From assembly GCF_048403405.1 (NCBI RefSeq), contig NZ_CP183129.1: a DNA stretch of 64,000 nucleotides; one strand, given 5' to 3'. The notes beneath the pieces were generated by a model, which did not search any database, was not told the origin of the DNA, and saw only the letters and a list, made by a program, of their open reading frames with translations. Shown piece after piece: positions 1,920 to 59,083 of the stretch. The translations under genes were made by a program, and so were the position numbers. This DNA is from Escherichia coli. GTDB lineage: Bacteria; Pseudomonadota; Gammaproteobacteria; Enterobacterales; Enterobacteriaceae. How positions within the stretch are numbered: position 1 is the stretch's first letter; each line of letters starts with the position of its first letter.

Positions 1920-2623
1920 TATTCTTCCTCTCCGCTATCTGGCTGACTCTCTTCGGTTTCATCGTTGAGTTGCAGATGATTTTCAATCGGCATTGCTTCG
2001 CCATCACGAATCAGGCGACGCTGTGCTTCACGGGGATCGTCGCCAGCACGCACATCGGCTCCGAAGCGGAACACCGATTCGGTAATGCGGAACTTGCTGC
2101 TGTCGTGGCCCATAAACCACACCATGCCCAAACGACGCAGACGGTTGAGCGAAGAACGTACTTTCTCCTGCAACTTCTGCCGGTCAACGTCTGAACCGGT
2201 TGAACGGTTGTTCACCAGTTTCAGCAGTTTCGCTTCATCGGCCAGGGTGAGCAGTTCGTCGTACAGTTCCTGTTGAGTAAAAATCCCCTCATTCGCCAGC
2301 CGTTCCGGGCTGAGATAGAGATAACAGAGGATTTTCCCGACCATCATATCCAGTTCCGACAAGACAGAACGAGGGATCAGCGTGGTGGAACGTGGGCGTA
2401 AATAGAAGAACCCTTCCGGTGCACGAATAAGCTCAACGTTATAACGCGCGTAAAACTCTTCCAGATATTCCTGAAAATCCATCAGGAATGCATGATTATC
2501 CAGTTCGTCGAGGCCAATATGGCGGCCTGAACGTAAGGCGCTATCCAGCGCCGGAAATAACGGATTCGCCAGCGCCTGCGCCAGCTTAACCGGCATCACT
2601 TGTTCAATATTTGTCGATGACAT
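1919..2623 (-). CDS. mukE: chromosome partition protein MukE
   Basis: ORF track 1919..2650; protein matches MukE; start placed at ATG 2623-2621 ([12 protein letters not shown]...), which is 234 aa as recalled. Confidence 0.9.
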
Positions 2624-3926
2624 GCGCCTGTACCTTGGCTCCGTAATCATTAATCGGCTGCCATTTCGCTGGCAGTCCGGTGAAATCTGCTTGCGCTACG
2701 CCAAGACGTACCGCCTGATCAATAACAATGCGCGCAACGTCAAAGTGACGTGCACGCGGATACTGTGACAGATATTCGCGTACCACCAGACCAAGATCCA
2801 GCGGCACTTGTCTGGTTTTGTACACGGCGAGTTGTTCTTCGATGATCGCCGCCAGCTGTTCGCGGATCTCGTTAAACTCTTCGTATTCCAGATCCTCAGG
2901 AAGTTCCCCAGTCACTTCTTCATCGCGCAGTGCCATCTCTTCGTCACGCATATCCAGCAGACGATCGGCATTGGCATAAGTTAGCGCCCACGGCTCATCA
3001 AAATAGGTTTGTACCGACTGACGTAACCGCTGAGCAAAGACACGGTTTTTATCCATATCGATAGCGGTACGGATAAATTTATGTACGTGGCGGTCGTAGC
3101 CAATCCACAAATCGATGGATTGCTGGCCCCAGCTGATAATACGGTCAAGTTTGCTCTGCAGATCGAATACCAGACGATCGACAAAATGCAGATCGTCATG
3201 GGTCATCGTCGCATCCTGAATGCGCAACAGATTAGCCTGCAATTTGTCGCCTGCCGCTTCCAGCGTATCCTGCAATTCACGCAGCGTTCCGGAAGTTTCC
3301 GAAAGCAACAATTCACAGCTGGAGATCGCCGCCCGCCAGTCTTTGTTCAGCAACTGGGCGATATCGTCCTTCACCTGCTGCTGCTGTTCGTCCATCAGAC
3401 GTTGCGTCAGGTCGATACTGTCGAAAATTTCTGCTACCGAATATTTCAGTGGCGCATAAACATTACGGTGCCAGTGAAATTCATCACCGCCCTCTTCGGC
3501 GGCATCTGCCGCGCGTTTGAGCTCACCCGCCACAATCGACAACTGCATAGAAAGGCGCAGCGTAGAAAACTCGCGCTGACGGATGTAATAGTCAGTAATG
3601 CCGATGCCGAGCGGCGTCAGACGGTAAATTGCGTTCCCTTCCGCCTGCTCGCTGGTAAAGCGGTTCAGCAGACGTTGACGCACCATGTCGTTGATCGCGT
3701 TGTTGGCGCGCACGCCGATGGTTTCGCTGGTTTGCTCAAACGCATCACTCACATGGCGGAATGCATCCACCAGCTCGCCTTCACTCATCTCACCATCCAG
3801 ACGCTCGCCGTTCAGCGTGGCAACCGCCAGCAGAAAAGAGAGTCGGTCTACCGGCAGCGAGATGGAGAAGTCATTTTTTCTGGCCCAGGCAACCAGTTCG
3901 GGGACTGTCTGGGAAAATTCACTCAT
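2604..3926 (-). CDS. mukF: chromosome partition protein MukF (kleisin)
   Basis: 440-aa ORF; sequence recognised as MukF; sits between mukE and smtA in the expected order. Confidence 0.93.
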
Positions 3927-9879: not shown

Positions 9880-11624
9880 TGACCAAACTGCATTTTGTGA
9901 AGTTGCGCGTAAACGCCACGGTGCTCAAGCAAATCGTTATGCGTACCGCGTTCCACAATGACACCATCCTCGACGACCACGATTTCGTCTGCCTTTTCAA
10001 TGGTAGACAAGCGGTGGGCAATCACCAGAGAGGTACGGTTTTTCTGCAACTCATCCAGTGCCGCCTGAATCGCACGTTCGGATTCGGTATCCAACGCCGA
10101 GGTAGCTTCGTCCAGAATCAGAATCGGGCTATCACGCAACAAGGCTCGAGCGATAGCAATACGCTGACGCTGACCGCCAGAGAGCAGCACGCCGTTTTCA
10201 CCAATCACTGTATCGAGACCGTTATCCATCTTATTGATGAAGTCCATGGCGTAGGCCATACGCGCCGCTTCTTCAATTTGCTCACGGCTGTACTGTTCAG
10301 TCCGTGCGTAAGCAATGTTGTTAGCAACCGTATCGTTAAACAGATGGACATTCTGCGACACCAGAGCAACCTGGTTACGTAACGACGCCAGGGTATACTC
10401 GCGCAGATCGTGACCATCCATCAGAATTTCGCCTTCATCAATATCGTAAAAACGCGTGATCAGGCTGGCGATGGTTGATTTACCCGAACCAGAGCGTCCA
10501 ACCAGAGCAACCGTCTTCCCTGCCGGAATTTTCAGGTTGATGTTACGCAATGCGGGTACGTCACGTCCCGGATAAGTAAAGGTGACATTGCGGAATTCCA
10601 CGTCGCCAGTCGCACGCTCGATCACGCGCTTACCTTCGTCTTTCTCCTGCTCACTGTCCAGAATGGTAAACAGCGTCTGACAAGCCGCCATACCGCGCTG
10701 GAACTGGGCGTTAACGTTGGTCAGCGATTTCAGCGGACGCATCAGTGCAATCATTGAAGAGAAAACAACGGTAATCGTACCGGCAGTCAGGTTATCCATA
10801 ACACTTGGGAAGCTCGCCGCATACAGAACAAACGCCAGCGCCAAAGAGGCGATCAGCTGAATGATCGGATCAGAGATGGAAGAGGCTGAAACCATTTTCA
10901 TCCCCTGAAGACGCATTCGGTTACTGACTTTATCGAAGCGTTTCGTTTCCACTTCCTGACCACCGAAAATCAATACTTCTTTGTGGCCCTTCAGCATTTG
11001 TTCTGCGCTGGTGGTTACCTGCCCCATGGTGTTCTGCATGTTTTTACTGATATTGCGAAAACGCTTCGATACAACGCGAATCGCAATCGAAACAATCGGT
11101 GCCAGCACAATCAAAATGATCGACAGTTGCCAACTGTAATAGAACATCATGATGAACAGGCCGATGATCGACGCACCTTCACGCACAACAGTAATCAGTG
11201 CGCCGGAAGAGGAAGAAGCAACCTGTTCGGAATCGTAGGTGATACGTGACAACAGCGTACCCGTTGACTGTTTGTCAAAGAATGAAACCGGCATTCCCAT
11301 CATGTGACCAAACAGGCGGCGACGCATGGTCATTACCACCTTTCCTGATACCCAGGAGATACAGTAGCTGGAGACATAGCTGGTGATACCACGTAAAATC
11401 ATCAGCCCGATCACCACCAGCGGCATCCACACCAGCACGGAGCGATCTGTTTTACCAAAGCCATCATCAAGAAGTGGCTTAAGGAGCGATAACATGAAGG
11501 TATCGCTGGCTGCGTTGAGGATTAACGCTACGCCCGCCACGATCAGACCCGCTTTGAAAGGCGCAATGGTTGGCCACAGTCGGCGGAATGTCTGCCACGT
11601 AGAGAGATCTTTGTCGTTATGCAT
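9876..11624 (-). CDS. msbA: lipid A export ABC transporter ATP-binding/permease MsbA
   Basis: 582-aa ORF; Walker [13 protein letters not shown] signature LSGGQRQR, N-terminal TM domain. Confidence 0.96.
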
Positions 11625-49571: not shown

Positions 49572-51344
49572 ATGACCATCACCACAGACACCACTCTTTT
49601 ACACGACCCGCGTCGTCAGGCGGCGCTGCTGTACTGGCAGGGGTTTTCCGTGCCGCAGATTGCCGCCATGTTGCAGATGAAACGCCCGACGGTGCAGAGC
49701 TGGAAACAGCGCGACGGCTGGGACAGCGTTGCCCCCATCAGCCGTGTCGAAATGAGTCTGGAAGCGCGGCTGACCCAGCTCATCATCAAACCGCAGAAAA
49801 CCGGCGGTGACTTCAAGGAAATTGACCTGCTGGGACGCCAGATTGAACGACTGGCACGGGTCAACCGCTACAGCCAGACCGGCAACGAGGCAGACCTTAA
49901 TCCGAACGTCGCTAACCGCAACAAAGGCGGGCGGCGCAAACCGAAAAAGAATTTTTTCAGTGACGAGGCCATCGAAAAGCTGGAGCAGATTTTCTTTGAG
50001 CAGTCTTTCGAATATCAGTTGCACTGGTATCGCGCCGGGCTTGAGCACCGCATCCGCGATATCCTGAAATCCCGCCAGATTGGCGCGACGTTTTATTTTT
50101 CCCGCGAGGCGCTGCTGCGCGCCCTGAAAACCGGTCATAACCAGATTTTTCTGTCGGCCAGTAAAACGCAGGCGTATGTGTTCCGCGAATACATCATCGC
50201 CTTTGCCCGTCTGGTTGACGTTGACCTGACCGGTGACCCGATTGTCCTGGGCAATAACGGCGCAAAACTGATTTTTCTCGGCACCAACTCCAACACCGCG
50301 CAGAGCCATAACGGCGACCTGTACGTCGACGAGATTTTCTGGATCCCGAATTTTCAGGTACTGCGTAAGGTGGCATCAGGTATGGCCTCACAGAGTCACC
50401 TGCGCTCGACCTATTTCTCCACCCCGTCCACGCTGGCACACGACGCCTACCCGTTCTGGTCGGGTGAACTGTTCAACCGGGGACGCGCCAGCGCCGCCGA
50501 ACGCGTGGAAATCGACGTCAGTCATAACGCCCTTGCCGGTGGGCTTCTCTGTGCGGACGGCCAGTGGCGACAGATTGTCACCATTGAGGACGCCCTGAAA
50601 GGCGGCTGCACGCTGTTCGACATTGAGCAGCTCAAACGCGAAAACAGCGCCGACGATTTTAAAAACCTGTTCATGTGTGAATTTGTTGACGACAAGGCGT
50701 CGGTGTTCCCGTTTGAGGAGCTGCAACGCTGCATGGTCGACACGCTGGAAGAATGGGAAGACTATGCGCCGTTTGCCGCAAATCCGTTCGGCTCCCGACC
50801 GGTATGGATTGGTTACGACCCGTCACACCGTGGCGACAGCGCAGGATGCGTGGTACTGGCACCGCCGGTGGTGGCCGGTGGCAAATTCAGGATCCTTGAG
50901 CGTCACCAGTGGAAAGGCATGGACTTTGCCACTCAGGCTGAATCCATCCGCAAACTCACCGAAAAATACAACGTCGAATACATCGGTATTGATGCCACCG
51001 GCCTCGGTGTCGGCGTGTTCCAGCTCGTGCGCTCGTTCTATCCCGCCGCGCGCGACATCCGCTACACGCCGGAAATGAAAACCGCAATGGTGCTCAAGGC
51101 AAAAGACGTCATCCGCCGTGGCTGTCTGGAATATGACGTCAGCGCCACCGACATCACCAGCTCGTTTATGGCTATCCGCAAGACCATGACCAGCAGCGGA
51201 CGCAGCGCCACCTATGAGGCCAGCCGCAGCGAGGAAGCCAGCCACGCCGACCTCGCCTGGGCGACCATGCACGCCCTGTTAAATGAGCCACTCACCGCCG
51301 GTATCAGCACCCCGCTGACATCCACCATTCTGGAGTTTTACTGA
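49572..51344 (+). CDS. P: terminase ATPase (large) subunit P
   Basis: ORF 49542..51344; start placed at ATG 49572 with GAGGT SD (MTITTDTTLLHDPRRQAALLYWQ...), 590 aa. Confidence 0.9.
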   Translation: MTITTDTTLLHDPRRQAALLYWQGFSVPQIAAMLQMKRPTVQSWKQRDGWDSVAPISRVEMSLEARLTQLIIKPQKTGGDFKEIDLLGRQIERLARVNRYSQTGNEADLNPNVANRNKGGRRKPKKNFFSDEAIEKLEQIFFEQSFEYQLHWYRAGLEHRIRDILKSRQIGATFYFSREALLRALKTGHNQIFLSASKTQAYVFREYIIAFARLVDVDLTGDPIVLGNNGAKLIFLGTNSNTAQSHNGDLYVDEIFWIPNFQVLRKVASGMASQSHLRSTYFSTPSTLAHDAYPFWSGELFNRGRASAAERVEIDVSHNALAGGLLCADGQWRQIVTIEDALKGGCTLFDIEQLKRENSADDFKNLFMCEFVDDKASVFPFEELQRCMVDTLEEWEDYAPFAANPFGSRPVWIGYDPSHRGDSAGCVVLAPPVVAGGKFRILERHQWKGMDFATQAESIRKLTEKYNVEYIGIDATGLGVGVFQLVRSFYPAARDIRYTPEMKTAMVLKAKDVIRRGCLEYDVSATDITSSFMAIRKTMTSSGRSATYEASRSEEASHADLAWATMHALLNEPLTAGISTPLTSTILEFY

Positions 51345-52363
51345 TGAGCAAGAAAAAAGGGAAAACACCGCAACCTGCGGCAAAAAAAATGACCGCCAGC
51401 GCCCCGAAAATGGAGGCATTCACCTTTGGCGAGCCGGTGCCGGTACTCGACCGCCGTGACATTCTGGATTACGTCGAGTGCATCAGTAACGGCAGATGGT
51501 ATGAGCCGCCGGTCAGCTTTACCGGTCTGGCGAAAAGCCTGCGTGCTGCCGTGCATCACAGCTCGCCGATTTACGTCAAACGCAATATTCTGGCCTCGAC
51601 ATTTATCCCGCATCCGTGGCTTTCCCAGCAGGATTTCAGCCGCTTTGTGCTGGATTTTCTGGTGTTCGGTAATGCGTTTCTGGAAAAGCGTTACAGCACC
51701 ACCGGTAAGGTCATCAGACTGGAAACCTCACCGGCAAAATATACCCGCCGTGGCGTGGAGGAGGATGTTTACTGGTGGGTGCCGTCCTTCAACGAGCCGA
51801 CAGCCTTCGCGCCCGGCTCCGTGTTTCACCTGCTGGAGCCGGATATCAATCAGGAGCTGTACGGCCTGCCGGAATATCTCAGCGCCCTTAACTCTGCCTG
51901 GCTGAATGAGTCGGCCACGCTGTTCCGCCGCAAGTATTACGAAAACGGCGCTCATGCCGGATACATCATGTATGTCACCGATGCCGTGCAGGATCGCAAC
52001 GATATCGAAATGCTTCGCGAAAACATGGTGAAGTCGAAAGGCCGCAACAACTTTAAAAACCTGTTTCTCTATGCCCCACAGGGGAAAGCCGACGGCATTA
52101 AAATTATCCCCCTCAGTGAAGTGGCGACGAAGGACGATTTTTTTAATATCAAAAAAGTCAGCGCCGCAGATCTCCTGGACGCACACCGCATCCCCTTTCA
52201 GTTGATGGGCGGTAAGCCGGAGAATGTCGGGTCACTAGGAGATATTGAAAAAGTGGCAAAGGTCTTTGTCCGCAATGAACTCACTCCATTACAGGAGAGA
52301 ATAAAGTCAATAAATGAATGGTTAGATATGGAAGTCATAAAATCCCTTGATTATAACTTATAA
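51344..52363 (+). CDS. Q: portal protein Q
   Basis: 339-aa ORF overlapping the P stop; P2 order. Confidence 0.88.
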   Translation: MSKKKGKTPQPAAKKMTASAPKMEAFTFGEPVPVLDRRDILDYVECISNGRWYEPPVSFTGLAKSLRAAVHHSSPIYVKRNILASTFIPHPWLSQQDFSRFVLDFLVFGNAFLEKRYSTTGKVIRLETSPAKYTRRGVEEDVYWWVPSFNEPTAFAPGSVFHLLEPDINQELYGLPEYLSALNSAWLNESATLFRRKYYENGAHAGYIMYVTDAVQDRNDIEMLRENMVKSKGRNNFKNLFLYAPQGKADGIKIIPLSEVATKDDFFNIKKVSAADLLDAHRIPFQLMGGKPENVGSLGDIEKVAKVFVRNELTPLQERIKSINEWLDMEVIKSLDYNL

Positions 52364-52375
52364 GTAAATATATAA

Positions 52376-52402
52376 AGTTGGCGGAATGCAATCCCGCCAA
52401 CT
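52376..52402. terminator. bidirectional terminator hairpin between Q and the convergent RT-module
   Basis: AGTTGGCGG-(loop)-CCGCCAACT between convergent genes. Confidence 0.5.
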
Positions 52403-52405
52403 TAA

Positions 52406-53113
52406 CTATATATACTTCCTTTTTACTCTACTTAATTCTATCACTGATGAGGAGTGACAAAATGACAAATTAATAGTATCGATATAATCCAAAATTTGAC
52501 TCTCAACCTCAATAAAAATATTTTTGGGCCCATTACTAATCGATATACCGATTTCATCCAAAACAGCCATCATTTTTCTCTGATGAGTTTTATATTTATA
52601 GTCTTTATTTTCCTCTGTAATATGTGCATTGGCTTCCTCAATAACACATTTGATTCTAGATATTATTTCTAGATAATCTCTCGAAACAGATATATCACCG
52701 CCTTGCGCTTCAGGGAACATAACCCTATACCATCTAAAAAAATTAACTTTCTCTGGATAGATGCTACTTCTTTTAGTTAACTCAGCACTTGCAAATTCTC
52801 TAAACATCGTCAGATGACTAGTGTAATTACTATTATTATTATTTTTAACTCCAGCGTTATATGTCATCAAAGCAATCATAACACCAAAAACGGTAACAAA
52901 AGTTGTTATAAGCCATCCAAACGCCTGAAAATACATTACTATACCAGATGTTTTTTCCGCAAAAAATTTTAAGCACTGGCTATCGAAGCATATATCACGC
53001 TCATATAGCTTTTCATTCTGAATAGTTTCAAAAAGAGAAATTAGCGAAAAAATCAAAAAAAGAGCTGACGACACACCGACAATATATTTGAGAAGTCTAA
53101 TATTTGCATTCAT
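52406..53113 (-). CDS. 2-TM membrane protein, translationally coupled to the upstream reverse transcriptase (candidate effector)
   Basis: 235 aa; start ATG overlaps the RT stop (ATGA at 53113-53110); two N-terminal hydrophobic helices; AT-rich. Confidence 0.6.
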   Translation of the reverse strand: MNANIRLLKYIVGVSSALFLIFSLISLFETIQNEKLYERDICFDSQCLKFFAEKTSGIVMYFQAFGWLITTFVTVFGVMIALMTYNAGVKNNNNSNYTSHLTMFREFASAELTKRSSIYPEKVNFFRWYRVMFPEAQGGDISVSRDYLEIISRIKCVIEEANAHITEENKDYKYKTHQRKMMAVLDEIGISISNGPKNIFIEVESQILDYIDTINLSFCHSSSVIELSRVKRKYI

Positions 53114-54384
53114 AATGGTTTTAAAGATGCCAATCTAGATTTAAAACACTCCAGTTTTTCTTTAAATGATTCAGAGCGAGTAAGAATAATCATCTTATAT
53201 CTCGTCAAATCATATTTTCTTTTATACCAATGTTTATTTTGATTACCTTTCGAATACGACAACTCTAAACTTTTTATAGCTGCATCAATCACAGCAACAT
53301 CTCTTTTAGATGGCATCGGTTTTATTGCCTGCAACTGTTTCTTGAATGATTCATATTTTTCATGCCCAACACGGCCAAGCTTATTCACTCTCCCCATACA
53401 TCTATTGAATTCTTTTCTGTATGCAACACTTGTTTTTGTGTTATTTTTTGCCGCCAGTAATTTCAAATTATGTATAGATGCCCTGATTCTTTTGACTTCA
53501 TCGGATGGTAGTCGAGGTGAGTCATAGTCAACTCTTAAACCATGTACTTTTATAGGTTCAGATGAACAGTGAAATATTTTTGTTTTGTGCTTATTTATCG
53601 GCAAGTCATGCTCAGAAAGCATCCTCTCTATATGGCTTTGCATTTGAGAAAAATCATAATTACTTATTTTAGATGACACGGTAATATCATCTACCAAACG
53701 CGTATAAACAAGTCCTTTCCTCTGCGCACGTCTTACCACATCCCCTTCAACAGCGAATAAACACAAAGTTGCTATATAGCTTGATGTTAAGGCCCCCTGT
53801 ACGACAAAATCATCCTTAGTACATATATCCACCAAGTATTCAAGAGCCTCATCCTTAATATGCAATATCTCCTCAAACACGCTCCTAACCAGATCTCTAT
53901 GGATATTATCGAAAAAATTACTTATATCCACCTTGAGAACTGTTTTTGCTCCACAATGAGCCTTTGCACATGAAACATAGTCACGTTTGACATTAGAATT
54001 TAAAACATCATTTTTACTGGGAACTGAACCAAACAAAAATGAAGGAAAAACAACCAATTCCTTAAAAATACGTTTATTAATTCTACTCTGTAATAATCTC
54101 ATTTTAGGATGTAGGGAGTAGACAATCCGTTTGCTTCCGTCAATTTTGGGAATTTCTTTTAGAGTATATTTCTCATCTAATGATAATTCTGCAATAGCTT
54201 TAAGCTCTTCAACAGAAATCGATAAAGCCTTTGACAACTTTTCAAGTGTTGTGATAGGAGCATTGGATTTGCTGTATGGTTTAAATTTATCCATAAACAT
54301 ACCATTCAAATTCAAAGTTACGTACGGTCTTCCCATACTCAAGGGTGGAACAGCAGAGATGCTTACATCAACAATTGTCAGCAA
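53110..54384 (-). CDS. retron-type reverse transcriptase with about 100-aa C-terminal extension
   Basis: RT motifs IPKIDGSKRIVY, CAKAHCGAKTVLKVDISNFFDNI, QGALTSSYIATLCL, YTRLVDDITV (YxDD), IKVHGL. Track start is TTG 54384; in-frame ATGs at 54336, 54300, 54294. Confidence 0.75.
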   Translation of the reverse strand: MLTIVDVSISAVPPLSMGRPYVTLNLNGMFMDKFKPYSKSNAPITTLEKLSKALSISVEELKAIAELSLDEKYTLKEIPKIDGSKRIVYSLHPKMRLLQSRINKRIFKELVVFPSFLFGSVPSKNDVLNSNVKRDYVSCAKAHCGAKTVLKVDISNFFDNIHRDLVRSVFEEILHIKDEALEYLVDICTKDDFVVQGALTSSYIATLCLFAVEGDVVRRAQRKGLVYTRLVDDITVSSKISNYDFSQMQSHIERMLSEHDLPINKHKTKIFHCSSEPIKVHGLRVDYDSPRLPSDEVKRIRASIHNLKLLAAKNNTKTSVAYRKEFNRCMGRVNKLGRVGHEKYESFKKQLQAIKPMPSKRDVAVIDAAIKSLELSYSKGNQNKHWYKRKYDLTRYKMIILTRSESFKEKLECFKSRLASLKPL

Positions 54385-54625
54385 CAGCCTCTGCTATCTT
54401 TCGACCGTACGTAATGTCGTCGGCTACGGCACCATCGTAGTTGACGACGGTGGGGCCTCGCTGATAGGTCCATAGTGGACGCTTTTTTGTAAAAGCAAAA
54501 ACTGACAATTTAATGTTGTTGACTGCCGCATACCAAGCGAATCGCTGGTGCGCTAAGAATAATGCAACAAAAAAATAAGAATTTCAACCGGGTAACTGCA
54601 AGCCAGCGACATCGTTTAGCGCGCA

Positions 54626-54644
54626 GTGCTTTCCCCGCCTCGCC
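54626..54644. other. phage cos site (19-nt cohesive-end sequence)
   Basis: GTGCTTTCCCCGCCTCGCC is the reverse complement of the P2 cohesive end GGCGAGGCGGGGAAAGCAC as I recall it; located between Q and the A-side genes as in P2. Confidence 0.7.
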
Positions 54645-54805
54645 CGCCCGCTTCGTGGGGCGGTTTTAATGCAGGTGCAATACCGCTTTTGAGCCACGCC
54701 CGTCCTGGCGGACGCACGGCCGGAACATGCAACTCCGGCACATGCAAAACCATGCACATATTGCACGCAGAAAGATAAATGCCAAAATACCTAAATCAAC
54801 TTCCA

Positions 54806-56644
54806 TTAATCAGCCAGATAAGGTTCAACTTTATCTTCCCATACACTAAATAAAGGCAAACAAGTTAAATAAAAGATAAAGACACAGGCAAAAACTGAAG
54901 TTGGTTGATAACAATGATTTACAGTATACCTGCCATGAGCCATCGTGTGTCTAATTGCAGCACCACCTTTCATATTGAACAATAAATCCATAGTCAATAC
55001 ATGATCACTATCAAAAACACCTTCCATTTCACTCCTATAATTTGCAAGCATTTGAGATAGGCTAGTAGCCTCCTCAAAAAGCGACACATCTATTTTCGTT
55101 GTTTCTTTTCTTCTTAATTCTAAAATCCATCTAATTGAATTCTCCAATTGCGGCAATAACAAATAACAGGCAGACACATAATCTCCCTGCCAAAGCTTAT
55201 AAAACCCCAAAGAAAATATTTCTGCATACCCAGGTGGAACAAATGCACTTTGTTGTGAGATTGGGTCAAATGTATTTTCATTTAATGAATACCTAGCCAA
55301 CACACTTTGCCTAACGACTTCAAACTCACCACAAACATAGACCTGATGCTCAATGTTACTAGTTCTTAAATAATTTGCACAAGCATCATTTAAACTTATA
55401 TCCCCCGCAGGATCCAAAGGTGAACGACTTGCTACAACGCGCCCTCTATCATCATAAACAACCGTTTCACTCATATTAAGAAAAAAATGTTTTTTAGCAT
55501 CGGAACGAGCTCTTTCCATAATTTCACTGGCACTTACAATCTTAAATCTAGCAATTAAAGTTTTAATTACCCTTGAGAAATCCAATTGATTATAAACATG
55601 CTCTTTCTGAGCGATAACATCACTAAGATCCATTGGTATTGCAAAGAAGTGCATTTCATCATTGATTTGATCTCGAATAGAATTCAATTCCTCTCTAATC
55701 TTTTTAATTTCTTCATTCATTCCACCAATTGCTCTAAATTCGCCAAGAGCAACTCTTAACCAATGAGCCTTCAATATTGAAGATGAAGACTGTTCAAATT
55801 GAGCCAATGTTATTTCTGACGCTTTAATTCTGCACCGTCTTCCTTGCTCTTCCATATCGTTTTTAACATATAATTCAGACGCAAAATAAAACAATTTTTT
55901 CACTGCATCAAAATAAGACGCTCCACAATGCTCATCAGCTATCTTTTCTGCATTCTCAGCCAATTGCAAGGGACACAATAAATTATTCTTATAAAGAATT
56001 TCAGAAACTCTTAATACACCGGTGAATATACCAGAGTCTATTAATACATGATATAACCTTAATGTCGAATCAACTATCCCCCCTTGTAGTTGTTTTTTCC
56101 TGCCAATAAGCATGCGCGATATTGCGATACCTCTATCCAAGCAGTCAACAACATCAAAAATATGGATATCACCTGACTCTTGTTTTTCTATTAAAGTATC
56201 GCAAGCATCATTAACCATTAGAGAATATGACTCTATTGCTTTATTGGCAGAGTCTATATCCTTACGGTTATTTATCCATAAAACATCACACACCCTAGAT
56301 ATAATATAAGGATTATCGGAGTTTTCTTTAATACAAGTTAATATTGTTGAAAAACTCTCCTTATAATCTGAAGGCCTATAGCCCCTCTCAGGATAGAGAA
56401 TGATTTTTGGCTCAAAACCGATAATATCACCAGACCTAGAAAATTTAAAATTAAACAACGCACGTAATAAATAGCAAAGCCGCCAAGAACTTACATCGTT
56501 TTTTAGCTTGTAAGATGACAACAACTGAACAAAATAAGACTCCATATCAAAATGAGAATAACTTCTTGGCGATGATAATATACTGGCGTATTCACTTTTT
56601 TTAAAATCATCAACTGAAATAGAAAAAACATCAAACTCGCTCAT
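54806..56644 (-). CDS. large accessory protein of unknown function (612 aa) at the P2 tin/old position
   Basis: ATG 56644 with strong SD AGGTGAGGA; no Walker A or other recognised motif except a possible Rx4H (IRHTMAHGRY) near the C-terminus; AT-rich. Confidence 0.6.
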   Translation of the reverse strand: MSEFDVFSISVDDFKKSEYASILSSPRSYSHFDMESYFVQLLSSYKLKNDVSSWRLCYLLRALFNFKFSRSGDIIGFEPKIILYPERGYRPSDYKESFSTILTCIKENSDNPYIISRVCDVLWINNRKDIDSANKAIESYSLMVNDACDTLIEKQESGDIHIFDVVDCLDRGIAISRMLIGRKKQLQGGIVDSTLRLYHVLIDSGIFTGVLRVSEILYKNNLLCPLQLAENAEKIADEHCGASYFDAVKKLFYFASELYVKNDMEEQGRRCRIKASEITLAQFEQSSSSILKAHWLRVALGEFRAIGGMNEEIKKIREELNSIRDQINDEMHFFAIPMDLSDVIAQKEHVYNQLDFSRVIKTLIARFKIVSASEIMERARSDAKKHFFLNMSETVVYDDRGRVVASRSPLDPAGDISLNDACANYLRTSNIEHQVYVCGEFEVVRQSVLARYSLNENTFDPISQQSAFVPPGYAEIFSLGFYKLWQGDYVSACYLLLPQLENSIRWILELRRKETTKIDVSLFEEATSLSQMLANYRSEMEGVFDSDHVLTMDLLFNMKGGAAIRHTMAHGRYTVNHCYQPTSVFACVFIFYLTCLPLFSVWEDKVEPYLAD

Positions 56645-56798
56645 TCCTCACCTTTAAAGCACTTAACAAACAATCATGGTAAACAATACCAAACTGCAAG
56701 CAACGATTAAATACAGAAAACTCTTTCTGTCGAGATTTTTCAATAACACTAAATATATACAGTACGAAATTATCTAATATTGCGTGAATTTTTGCCAT
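56631..56798 (-). CDS. small hypothetical protein (55 aa) coupling gene A to the 612-aa gene
   Basis: ATG 56798-56796 overlaps the A stop (TAATG); its 3' end overlaps the 612-aa gene start by 14 nt. Confidence 0.35.
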   Translation of the reverse strand: MAKIHAILDNFVLYIFSVIEKSRQKEFSVFNRCLQFGIVYHDCLLSALKVRNERV

Positions 56799-59083
56799 TA
56801 TGTCCACTCCATTACTGTTGAGAATCCCGGCCACTCATCAATGACCGGATACGTGAATTTTTTCCCGCCATAATTTATGGTCGCTCCCCGAGCCAGCGCC
56901 TCAAGCTCCCATCGCTGTGGCCTGATACCGTTCTGAGCAAGGTCAACGCGGATACGGGTAATTTGCATTCGTTCCGACCGGGTCAGTCTGGCCGATGGCG
57001 CTATTTCATGCGGTTTTAACGGGCTTCCGTTTCTTTGCTGACGGTTTGGTCTTCTCAGACCGTGTTTTAATGCACCTCTGAGCGCCCTCACGACCTCCTG
57101 GTCATTCCATTCGATAACACCGTCATCTACCAGATTAAGCACTGCTACGGCGTGTTCAGAAGGCGTGGGAGCCGGTGACGAAGTATCACCACCGGTGAGC
57201 TTTCCACAGTTATTGACAGGACTCCGAGGCGCGGCGATGCCGCTTTTTAAAGTCAACGGCTCAACGACCGGAACTTTCGGCACAATGCGCCAGTCCGTCG
57301 TTCTGGTGATATGAATATGACGCGTGCCGAGATGCGGCGCGTAAATGCCGACCACTCTCTCGACTTCTTCCTCGTACTCGTTAACGTCATCCGACGGGCT
57401 ACGGGCGACCCTGACAGTCTGACAATCGCGCGGGACATTTGCCCCGCCCTGCGCGCTGATATACAACGCAAAATCACCACTGTCTGCGGCGGCGCGTGCA
57501 GCCTCGACGCGTTCGTCAAACTCATCAGCAATGCTGACGCCGCGAGGCAATTTGCGTAGTTCACGGTAAGCCCCCATTGTCGGCAGGCCAACCGTTTTAA
57601 ATTGCGGGATACGCCACGTTGACGCCCATGCGGTAACAGCCGCTGCAGTGTCTTTCAGCGGCCTGCCGGTATCGTTATCGAGCTGACCATCCAGTGCATA
57701 GCCGTCGATATTTTTTGAGATGTATTTCGCGATATATCCCGCAGCACCGCCCCGGTTAAGGTGTTTCGCCTGAAAACGGTTTCGCGCGGCTCCTCTTTCG
57801 TCGCCATCCTCTTTGAGCGCATAGCGACGCATGATTTCGATAATCTGGTTACGCTGGCGTGGATTACAAAAAAGCATCATATGCCAGTGCGGCGTTCCGT
57901 CGTGGTGTGGCTCGACGACTCGCAAACCGTAGACCTGTAAATCATTATCCTTGAATGCCGTGCGCATCAGGCTCCAGATACGGCAGAGATAACGCTGCGC
58001 ATCCTTCGGATTAAATGCCTCATCATTCCAGCCGTGATTAAGCTGCACGGTTTTACTTTCTCCTTTTCCGACCTGACGTGTCGGGTGATACTTTGACGGC
58101 GCGGTCAGCGTGATAAACATCCCCACATCACCCTCTGCGGCGGCGTAACGCTCAATACCGGCGATGGTGTTCATCAGCTCCATCCGGCGAATTTCAGGAT
58201 TAGAAATACTGCCCATCACCTTACTGATAAGGTCGATGCGCTCGCCGGTTTCCCTGTTTTCGAGGTCACACGATTTAAGAAATTCCAGATTTGCCTGGCG
58301 GCGTGCACGCACATCACGAATGGCGTGTTTACTGGCATAAGGAGAACGATCTTTATTGACCTCCCCGACAGCAATCAGTAACGCCTCATGCCAGCGCATA
58401 CGCTGGCCTTTAAGCTGATGAGTCCACCACTCATCGTTAAACAGGCGGGCAATGGCAGAATATGCCTGCCTCGTGGTCATCTGTCCTTTACGGTATTTTT
58501 TCCAGTAGAGCGGGGAAATATTGAAAGCACGTGCAGCGCCAGCAACATGACTATACAGGTGAGCCTGCGCCTCATCCGTAAACAGCGATTCTTTTTCGCC
58601 ATGCGCATCCACCCAGGCATCGCTGAGTTCCTCATACATCATGAAAAGCTGCGATGAGATACGGGCGGCAAACTTTTTCAGCTCCTTGTCATTCATTCCA
58701 GGCAGGCGCGCATAGTGGTCACGCTCTGCCAGAAACAGCAACGACGCGTCGGTGTTCATTTCATGGCGCTGATTCACGCGCTCAATGCGCGGCCATAAAC
58801 GACGCTGAAAAGTGGATGTGAGGAAATAAAACCCGTGTACCGGGCTTTTATTGCGCCGGATGTAGTCATAGCGTGAAGTAAACAGCGAGCGCAAAAAGTA
58901 AGGCAGGCGGTTAATCGTGGATAAAACCCCTTGCACCTGACGCATCTCGTCACGTGTAAGGGGTCTTTCGCGCCCGACGGCCTCGCGTGGCGCGTTCCAT
59001 GCATAAGCACCGGTAAACGTCTTACCGGTGCCTGCGGCAAATGCTGACGGAGGGACAAAACGCCCGGAGGCTTTAACGGCCAT
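56798..59083 (-). CDS. A: replication initiation protein A (rolling-circle nickase)
   Basis: ORF 56798..59125; start placed at ATG 59083 (MAVKASGRFVPP...), 761 aa; catalytic region YIAKYISKNIDGYALDG. Confidence 0.9.
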   Translation of the reverse strand: MAVKASGRFVPPSAFAAGTGKTFTGAYAWNAPREAVGRERPLTRDEMRQVQGVLSTINRLPYFLRSLFTSRYDYIRRNKSPVHGFYFLTSTFQRRLWPRIERVNQRHEMNTDASLLFLAERDHYARLPGMNDKELKKFAARISSQLFMMYEELSDAWVDAHGEKESLFTDEAQAHLYSHVAGAARAFNISPLYWKKYRKGQMTTRQAYSAIARLFNDEWWTHQLKGQRMRWHEALLIAVGEVNKDRSPYASKHAIRDVRARRQANLEFLKSCDLENRETGERIDLISKVMGSISNPEIRRMELMNTIAGIERYAAAEGDVGMFITLTAPSKYHPTRQVGKGESKTVQLNHGWNDEAFNPKDAQRYLCRIWSLMRTAFKDNDLQVYGLRVVEPHHDGTPHWHMMLFCNPRQRNQIIEIMRRYALKEDGDERGAARNRFQAKHLNRGGAAGYIAKYISKNIDGYALDGQLDNDTGRPLKDTAAAVTAWASTWRIPQFKTVGLPTMGAYRELRKLPRGVSIADEFDERVEAARAAADSGDFALYISAQGGANVPRDCQTVRVARSPSDDVNEYEEEVERVVGIYAPHLGTRHIHITRTTDWRIVPKVPVVEPLTLKSGIAAPRSPVNNCGKLTGGDTSSPAPTPSEHAVAVLNLVDDGVIEWNDQEVVRALRGALKHGLRRPNRQQRNGSPLKPHEIAPSARLTRSERMQITRIRVDLAQNGIRPQRWELEALARGATINYGGKKFTYPVIDEWPGFSTVMEWT

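Follow-up and report, generated by a model that had tools for sequence, protein, structure and literature searches.

Between the portal gene Q and cos, a P2-like prophage in this Escherichia coli DNA holds two overlapping minus-strand genes, encoding a reverse transcriptase (RT) and a small membrane protein, and a structured RNA upstream of them that the initial annotation did not describe; the features of this interval are collected in table 1, with positions counted in the 64,000-nucleotide window, by which we mean the whole stretch of DNA that was analysed. Gene Q (51344-52363) lies on the plus strand and is convergent with the module, whose GC content is 35% (0.31-0.38) compared with 55% (0.53-0.59) in the flanking terminase and portal genes. 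The Q stop codon is about 2.25 kb from cos here and about 160 nt from the cos homology in a P2-like relative. The initial annotation, which described an AT-rich module convergent with Q in place of a short P2 spacer, was therefore right on each of these points. Homology to P2-like phages resumes at 54618, and the module spans from there to the terminator-like hairpin. The portal protein is 96% identical overall to that of the P2-like relative but diverges across its last approximately 26 residues, so the left junction lies inside the 3' end of Q. The gpA-cos-gpQ interval of the P2-like phages is a known defence hotspot in which retrons are among the cargo (Rousset et al. 2022). A scan of the window found no tRNA genes.

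Table 1. Features of the module between Q and cos (positions in the window)
Feature	Position	Strand	Basis
Intrinsic-terminator-like hairpin, 13-bp stem and T-rich tail, between the stop codons of the 2TM gene and Q	52375..52403	-	Sequence
Retron Ec48 2TM effector membrane protein, 235 aa	52406..53113	-	NF038235, 2TM_IV, two hydrophobic segments
Retron Ec48 RT CDS, from M31, 394 aa	53110..54294	-	RefSeq start; RT_IV, RVT_1, identity to Ec48-RT
Structured leader: Y' (54358-54349), small hairpin CCC-UUGAGUAU-GGG (54345-54332), X' (54329-54318)	54318..54358	-	Covariation, fold
a2 inverted repeat, CUGACAAUUGUUGA	54368..54381	-	Pairs with a1; covariation
Inferred msd, template of 48-nt msDNA, the 48 nt 5' of a2	54382..54429	-	a1/a2 geometry and published msDNA length
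Third hairpin, CACCGUCGU-CAACU-ACGAUGGUG, adjacent, on the 5' side, to the presumed end of reverse transcription	54430..54452	-	Folds; matches published Ec48 ncRNA primers
Two msr hairpins, GCUUUU-ACAA-AAAAGC and GUCCA-CUA-UGGAC	54468..54496	-	Folds, covariation
a1 inverted repeat, UCAACAA, 7-nt bulge, UUGUCAG	54502..54522	-	Pairs with a2; covariation
Conserved 5' hairpin, CCAGCG-AUU-CGCUUGG, 5' of a1	54533..54548	-	100% paired in 9 homologues over 6 pairs, 4 of them changed on both sides
Site resembling a promoter, TTGAAA-17 nt-CATTAT, 5' of the retron RNA	54559..54587	-	Consensus scan; consensus match only
P2-type cos cohesive-end sequence, GGCGAGGCGGGGAAAGCAC, 19 nt, marking the boundary of the inserted module	54626..54644		Sequence match

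The 424-codon frame first reported for the RT (53110..54384, minus strand) is present at those coordinates, although 424 is the length of the maximal ORF counted from a TTG codon and the RefSeq protein has 394 amino acids (see below). Its translation contains the motifs that had been pointed out, namely LKEIPKIDGSKR (IPKIDGSKR), VQGALTSS, YTRLVDD, the VTG-like IKVHGL and the NAxxH-like segment, which reads SCAKAH and is followed directly by TVLKVDISNFFDNI / LKVDISNFFDNI. Pfam RVT_1 matches residues 78-284 (E = 2.7e-31). Among the PADLOC models the best match is the type IV retron RT, RT_IV, with 585.7 bits over profile positions 2-385 of 386 (RT residues 36-423), and the next is RT_V with 212.6 bits. 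An additional C-terminal region had been noted and is indeed there, but it is not peculiar to this protein; the RT_IV profile runs through it, which marks it as a feature of the entire type IV family. A search of the PDB sequences with the RT found distant retron RTs only (Ec86 and Kva2, about 62 bits).

The RT stop codon and the start codon of the downstream 235-amino acid protein share four nucleotides (ATGA), as had been reported, and that protein has two hydrophobic segments near its N-terminus (residues ~10-28 and ~58-84), in agreement with the two transmembrane helices predicted for it. It matches the NCBIfam equivalog NF038235 (retron Ec48 family effector membrane protein) with 226.7 bits, where the cut-off is 65, and PADLOC 2TM_IV with 282.9 bits; a PDB sequence search with it gave no match. 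A 2TM homologue lies 3' of the RT gene in 33 of 39 type IV loci. The sequence reads as one minus-strand operon, in which the promoter-like site would be followed by the msr-msd RNA, the RT gene, the translationally coupled 2TM effector gene and the terminator-like hairpin. The -35 TTGAA and the spacing of the promoter-like site are kept in seven of the eight close homologues that could be aligned there.

Retrons are not the only RTs that might be expected in such a place. RT-based exclusion genes are known from P2-like prophages, and RTs of the Abi and DRT/UG types (Abi-P2, AbiA, AbiK, DRT2-4), which have no msr-msd RNA and some of which make untemplated DNA, occur in P2-like variable regions; the RT does match several NCBIfam models of these types weakly. 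Those matches are all far below the respective cut-offs, however (Drt3a, 39.8 of 200 bits; Drt2, 34.8 of 390; AbiA, 23.9 of 250; Drt4, 16.6 of 450), and all but one of the best 25 of the 68 PADLOC matches are to retron RT models (the other is a CRISPR-associated RT model), with type IV at the top. The profile search against retron, Abi and DRT families that had been suggested thus comes out clearly in favour of a retron, and the covarying msr-msd RNA and the identity of the RT to that of Ec48 (both below) point the same way, so it is extremely improbable that this is an Abi or DRT enzyme. Even more improbable is a group II intron or other mobile retroelement, with a maturase-like RT, inserted beside cos. 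Such an element would also have an RVT_1 domain, and TIGR04416 does match weakly, but its 45.3 bits compare with a cut-off of 300, the protein has no maturase or endonuclease domain (its C-terminal part is the extension seen in type IV retrons), and neither an intron RNA nor any other Rfam family was found in the region or the whole window, in a permissive scan of 52000-57000 and a scan of the 64,000 nucleotides at gathering thresholds.

The retron reading can be made much more specific. Read from M17, the RT is 100% identical across 399 amino acids to the Ec48-RT of Doman et al. 2023 (supplement), and under M17 numbering the aspartates D216 and D217 of Millman et al. 2020 are the DD of YTRLVDD. 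Among validated retrons, Ec48 is known for two motif deviations, a replaced asparagine in NAxxH and VHG instead of VTG (Simon et al. 2019); this RT carries CAKAH and VHG, and so has both of them. Type IV, of which Retron-Eco6/Ec48 is the archetype, is defined by a clade-3 RT and a 2TM protein encoded immediately 3' of the RT gene or overlapping it (Mestre et al. 2020); the profile scores and the ATGA overlap place both here, and the RT core with its motifs and an adjacent msr-msd RNA bounded by a1 and a2 are likewise both present. The RT (399 amino acids), effector family, gene order, stop/start overlap and ncRNA fragments all match the published Ec48/Retron-Eco6 and no differences from it were detected, so the two are the same element; none of the results speaks against the identification. 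We conclude that retron Ec48 (Retron-Eco6), a type IV anti-phage retron, is almost certainly present here in an intact copy, carried as cargo between Q and cos of a P2-like prophage. The initial annotation, which had proposed a retron-type RT with a 2TM effector as a candidate abortive-infection module and had left its retron or Abi group open, was thus correct in the former, as the type IV profiles and the published Ec48 phenotype indicate, and the group can now be assigned.

Of 5426 complete E. coli genomes, 56 (about 1%) carry the 2250-bp module as a single chromosomal copy with an identity of 99% or more, and RefSeq already names the effector there; in at least five complete genomes other than this one the module is 100% identical. 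Phage pro147 carries it at 99.6% identity; this was the only phage found when phage and plasmid collections were searched with tblastn, the plasmid matches were below 40% identity, and the collections gave no useful intermediate type IV homologues. Prophage cargo can decay, and one might ask whether the Ec48 copy in this genome is a decayed or silent one. We consider this very unlikely; both ORFs are intact, the RT is identical to that of the functional reference, the promoter-like site, the RNA helices and the terminator-like hairpin are all intact, and the near-identity among the 56 genomes argues against decay as well. Both Ec48 and the cos hotspot of the P2 family were already known, and this locus is one more occurrence of a characterised defence system.

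The RNA upstream of the RT gene was analysed by comparison with 39 type IV loci from diverse Proteobacteria and seven closer loci. No RNAalifold consensus emerged when 19 distant ncRNAs were aligned with plain MAFFT, and covariance models were therefore built from 9 close homologues. In the 9 homologues that could be aligned, the a1/a2 stem, the 5' hairpin and the two msr hairpins all show covariation. The model of a1-msr-msd-a2 recovered 14 loci, in which double changes occur at 14 of the 14 a1/a2 pairs with 85-94% of the cells paired, and the first msr hairpin (H1) is 98.8% paired with four covarying pairs; 18 distant loci have an inverted repeat of differing sequence in the a1/a2 register. 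Neither the Palka 2022 supplement nor that of the retron census gives the Ec48 ncRNA sequence, and a full-text literature search with an msd sequence string found nothing; only the primer fragments for the Ec48 ncRNA in Kong et al. 2021 could be matched, and these agree exactly with the DNA.

In retrons generally, the RT takes the G that terminates the a1/a2 stem as its priming site and copies the msd into msDNA. The G at 54502 is invariant in all nine close homologues and is the candidate branching G. Priming there would lead to the copying of the msd template into a short msDNA of about 48 nt, and, given the geometry of a1/a2 and the length published for the msDNA, the template is likely to be 54429-54382; the predicted msDNA, beginning beside 54382, would be 5'-CAACAGCCTCTGCTATC...GGCTACG(G). 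The msDNA of Ec48/Eco6 has been given as 48 nt, or 45 nt by sequencing (Palka et al. 2022). The far end of the msd so placed falls within an invariant CCGUAGC block, and the third hairpin would then belong to the msr rather than the msd. One group has placed editing donors in the loop of this hairpin (54430-54452), which is outside the 48-nt msd as drawn here.

Two segments of the putative template have complements between a2 and the RT gene. Template X (UUACGUACGGUC, 54414-54403) is complementary to leader X' (GACCGUACGUAA), and template Y (GAUAGCAGAG, 54398-54389) is complementary to leader Y' (CUCUGCUGUU).

Comparison with the homologues shows compensatory changes in these pairings. In 9 sequences the 12 bp of X:X' are 100% paired, with seven of the 12 pairs changed on both sides, and in Y:Y' eight of ten pairs are changed on both sides; in distant loci complementarity is found at the same offsets from a2 between unrelated sequences. 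A covariance model of the leader region, built from the 9 close sequences, found the element directly upstream of the RT gene in 31 loci. In the alignment fitted to that model, 93.9% of the cells are paired, compared with 35-42% after displacing the partner by 1-3 columns, and double changes occur at 22 of the 24 pairs; the observed values were reached by none of 500 shuffles of this model-fitted alignment. A weak match of model R1 elsewhere in the window (10270-10332, E = 0.014) was taken as chance. When the whole 5' RNA is folded, both the minimum-energy and the centroid structures take the template-leader pairing over a1/a2. The a2 repeat lies in the loop closed by Y:Y' and the two sets of helices cross, so the RNA must form either a pseudoknot or alternative conformations. 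Only the 5' arm would be copied, which would give an msDNA of the same sense as the leader arms.

The same structure bears on where the RT begins. Published Ec48 constructs use M17 (54336, 408 amino acids), whereas RefSeq and most homologues use the equivalent of M31 (54294); the homologous RTs are mostly 394-396 amino acids long. The first 30 codons of the maximal ORF overlap a2 and the structured leader. The native start is probably M31, because the M17 codon sits inside the small leader hairpin, in-frame stops upstream of the RT start close the M17 frame in three loci of the close-homologue alignment (L002, L082 and L084), and the RefSeq and homologous proteins have the shorter length. Conservation of the M17 extension ("MGRPYVTL") as protein was considered and rejected in view of the stops in these three loci and of the compensating changes found in the msd partner. 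We also considered whether the AUG conserved in the small leader hairpin might start a small toxic ORF like that of the type VI retrons, and rejected this because no consistent ORF is found across the loci.

What Ec48 does is known in some detail. It protects against phages of three families, and the defence requires the RT, the catalytic aspartates of the RT and the transmembrane helices (Millman et al. 2020). When lambda-vir and T7 escape the defence, the mutations lie in their inhibitors of RecBCD, Gam and gp5.9 respectively; expression of Gam or gp5.9 is lethal to cells with Ec48, and Ec48 could not be introduced into cells without RecB (Millman et al. 2020). These authors see Ec48 as a guardian of RecBCD, whose inhibition leads to abortive infection and death of the infected cell, and they inferred membrane damage by the 2TM effector by analogy with the 2TM effectors of CBASS. 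Lambda Gam has since been confirmed as a trigger of Eco6 (Zhang et al., bioRxiv 2025), and the Eco6 effector alone is not toxic (Palka et al. 2022). By this scheme, inhibition of RecBCD by a phage protein would cause the effector to damage the membrane and the infected cell to die. The module would then, as prophage cargo, protect the lysogen and hence the prophage from competing phages.

Other prophages of this kind offer parallels. Ec67 and Ec86 are likewise retron cargo beside cos, in 186-related prophages, where they replace DNA between cos and a terminator according to Dodd and Egan 1996 as cited in Simon et al. 2019. The retron types and effectors differ from those of Ec48, however; Ec67 is an RT-Toprim fusion of type I-C and Ec86 is of type II-A, with an RT only distantly related to that of Ec48 (62 bits). 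The P2 Old gene occupies the same hotspot next to cos, also as prophage cargo (Rousset et al. 2022), but it is on the opposite side of cos, where this DNA has a PDC-S39/DUF7380 gene, and its product is an ATPase/nuclease of the OLD family without RT, RNA or membrane effector. The action of P2 Old against lambda is linked to Gam/RecBCD status (the lambda Spi phenotype), and the phages of the P2 family thus carry two unrelated answers to the inhibition of RecBCD.

The closest parallel for the RNA is in the type VI retrons, which share RT clade 3 with Ec48 and make a "hybrid RNA" (Retron-Vpa2; Zhang et al., bioRxiv 2025). There, as in Ec48, the RNA is non-canonical in that the msr-msd continues into a structured downstream segment, and in type VI, a sister group, the msDNA derepresses translation of a toxin from this hybrid RNA (Zhang et al., bioRxiv 2025). 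The two differ in several respects. Type VI retrons encode a small toxic peptide and an HTH protein and make little msDNA before the trigger, whereas the effector of Ec48 is the 2TM protein and its msDNA is abundant and of the same sense as the leader. The repeats of type VI are direct and let the msDNA pair with the riboregulator, whereas those of Ec48 are inverted and it is the RNA template that pairs with the leader.

The type IV retron RNA may extend past a2, the a2-proximal half of the template pairing with the leader and a small conserved hairpin lying at the junction, and by analogy with type VI this could serve as a riboswitch-like means of coupling to translation of the RT and effector; we advance this tentatively and think it rather unlikely to prove correct in full. 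In such a scheme the leader would be freed by copying of the template and removal of the RNA by RNase H, or by annealing of the msDNA in trans to template that has not been copied, and the freed leader would alter translation of the RT and of the 2TM effector coupled to it. The case for coupling through msDNA is weakened by the abundant, constitutive msDNA of Ec48 and by its non-toxic effector (Palka et al. 2022). The pairing between template and leader in type IV retrons may itself be a new observation; no description of it was found in the literature accessible to us (Supplementary Figure S1 of Mestre et al. 2020 and Mao et al. 1997 excepted).

These findings have two consequences beyond this prophage. 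In the Ec48 RT ORF that is in common use, the N-terminal 14-30 codons overlap conserved RNA structure and may be absent from the native protein, a point of relevance to those who use this RT, for example in compact prime editors. And the pairing of template and leader provides a testable lead on how the clade-3 retrons might couple reverse transcription to toxin expression.

The template of the Ec48 (type IV) retron RNA, its msd, pairs over a long range with the leader that lies between the downstream inverted repeat, a2, and the start of the reverse transcriptase (RT) gene. Two msd segments, X and Y, form helices with the leader segments X' and Y', accompanied by a small junction hairpin, so that a2 lies inside the loop that the pairing encloses. 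This arrangement is conserved, with strong covariation across 31 type IV retron loci, and in the window and homologous loci L002-L040 and L081-L087 the element sits just upstream of each RT. We found no description of such template-leader pairing of type IV retrons in the accessible literature.

Coordinates of features of the retron module and its surroundings
Feature	Position	Strand	Location
Sequence divergence and fall in GC content	about 52280-52363	plus	3' end of Q
RT frame upstream of M31	54294-54384	minus	
Template-leader pairing	54318-54414	minus	
Donor-site hairpin	54430-54452	minus	
Conserved hairpin	54533-54548	minus	between promoter-like site and a1
AT-rich 612-aa gene	54806-56644	minus	interval from cos to replication gene A

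The RT open reading frame extends 30 codons upstream of its likely start, M31 (54294), and this upstream stretch overlaps both a2 and the structured leader; in homologues L002, L082 and L084 the corresponding frame contains stop codons. The published Ec48 RT is a protein of 408 amino acids that begins at M17 (54336), and it probably carries a non-native N-terminal extension.

Closer to the promoter-like site, the conserved hairpin preceding the upstream repeat, a1, is 100% paired with four covarying pairs among nine homologues, and the canonical description of the retron msr has no equivalent of this hairpin of the window copy of Ec48. Kong et al. (2021) placed editing donors in the loop of another hairpin (donor-site hairpin in the table), which by our reckoning would lie just past the end of the 48-nt msd. 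The donor site and this msd end are in conflict, and either the design of Kong et al. (2021) or the inferred msd boundary is off.

The portal protein Q is 96% identical overall to that of a P2-like relative, but its last ~26 residues diverge and it is 5 amino acids shorter. This divergence and the drop in GC content at the 3' end of Q suggest that the retron module has its left recombination junction within Q. On the other side of cos, the cos-to-gene A interval, which is occupied by old/tin in P2, contains a gene annotated in RefSeq as a DUF7380 protein, whose product is a match to PDC-S39, a defence candidate in PADLOC (E = 2e-68). At the cos-proximal end of this gene and in the adjoining intergenic DNA, the sequence is 99.4% identical to the P2-EC46 variable region (AM157366).

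Two loci on Logan and NCBI contigs, L086 and L087, have type IV retrons with 57-60% identity to Ec48. One flank of their RT (2501-3715) holds an Ogr/Delta-like gene together with a P4-type primase, and the opposite flank holds an integrase. Such a neighbourhood looks like the P4-like satellite hotspot, and therefore P2-like phages and apparent P4-like satellites alike seem to carry this one family of retrons.
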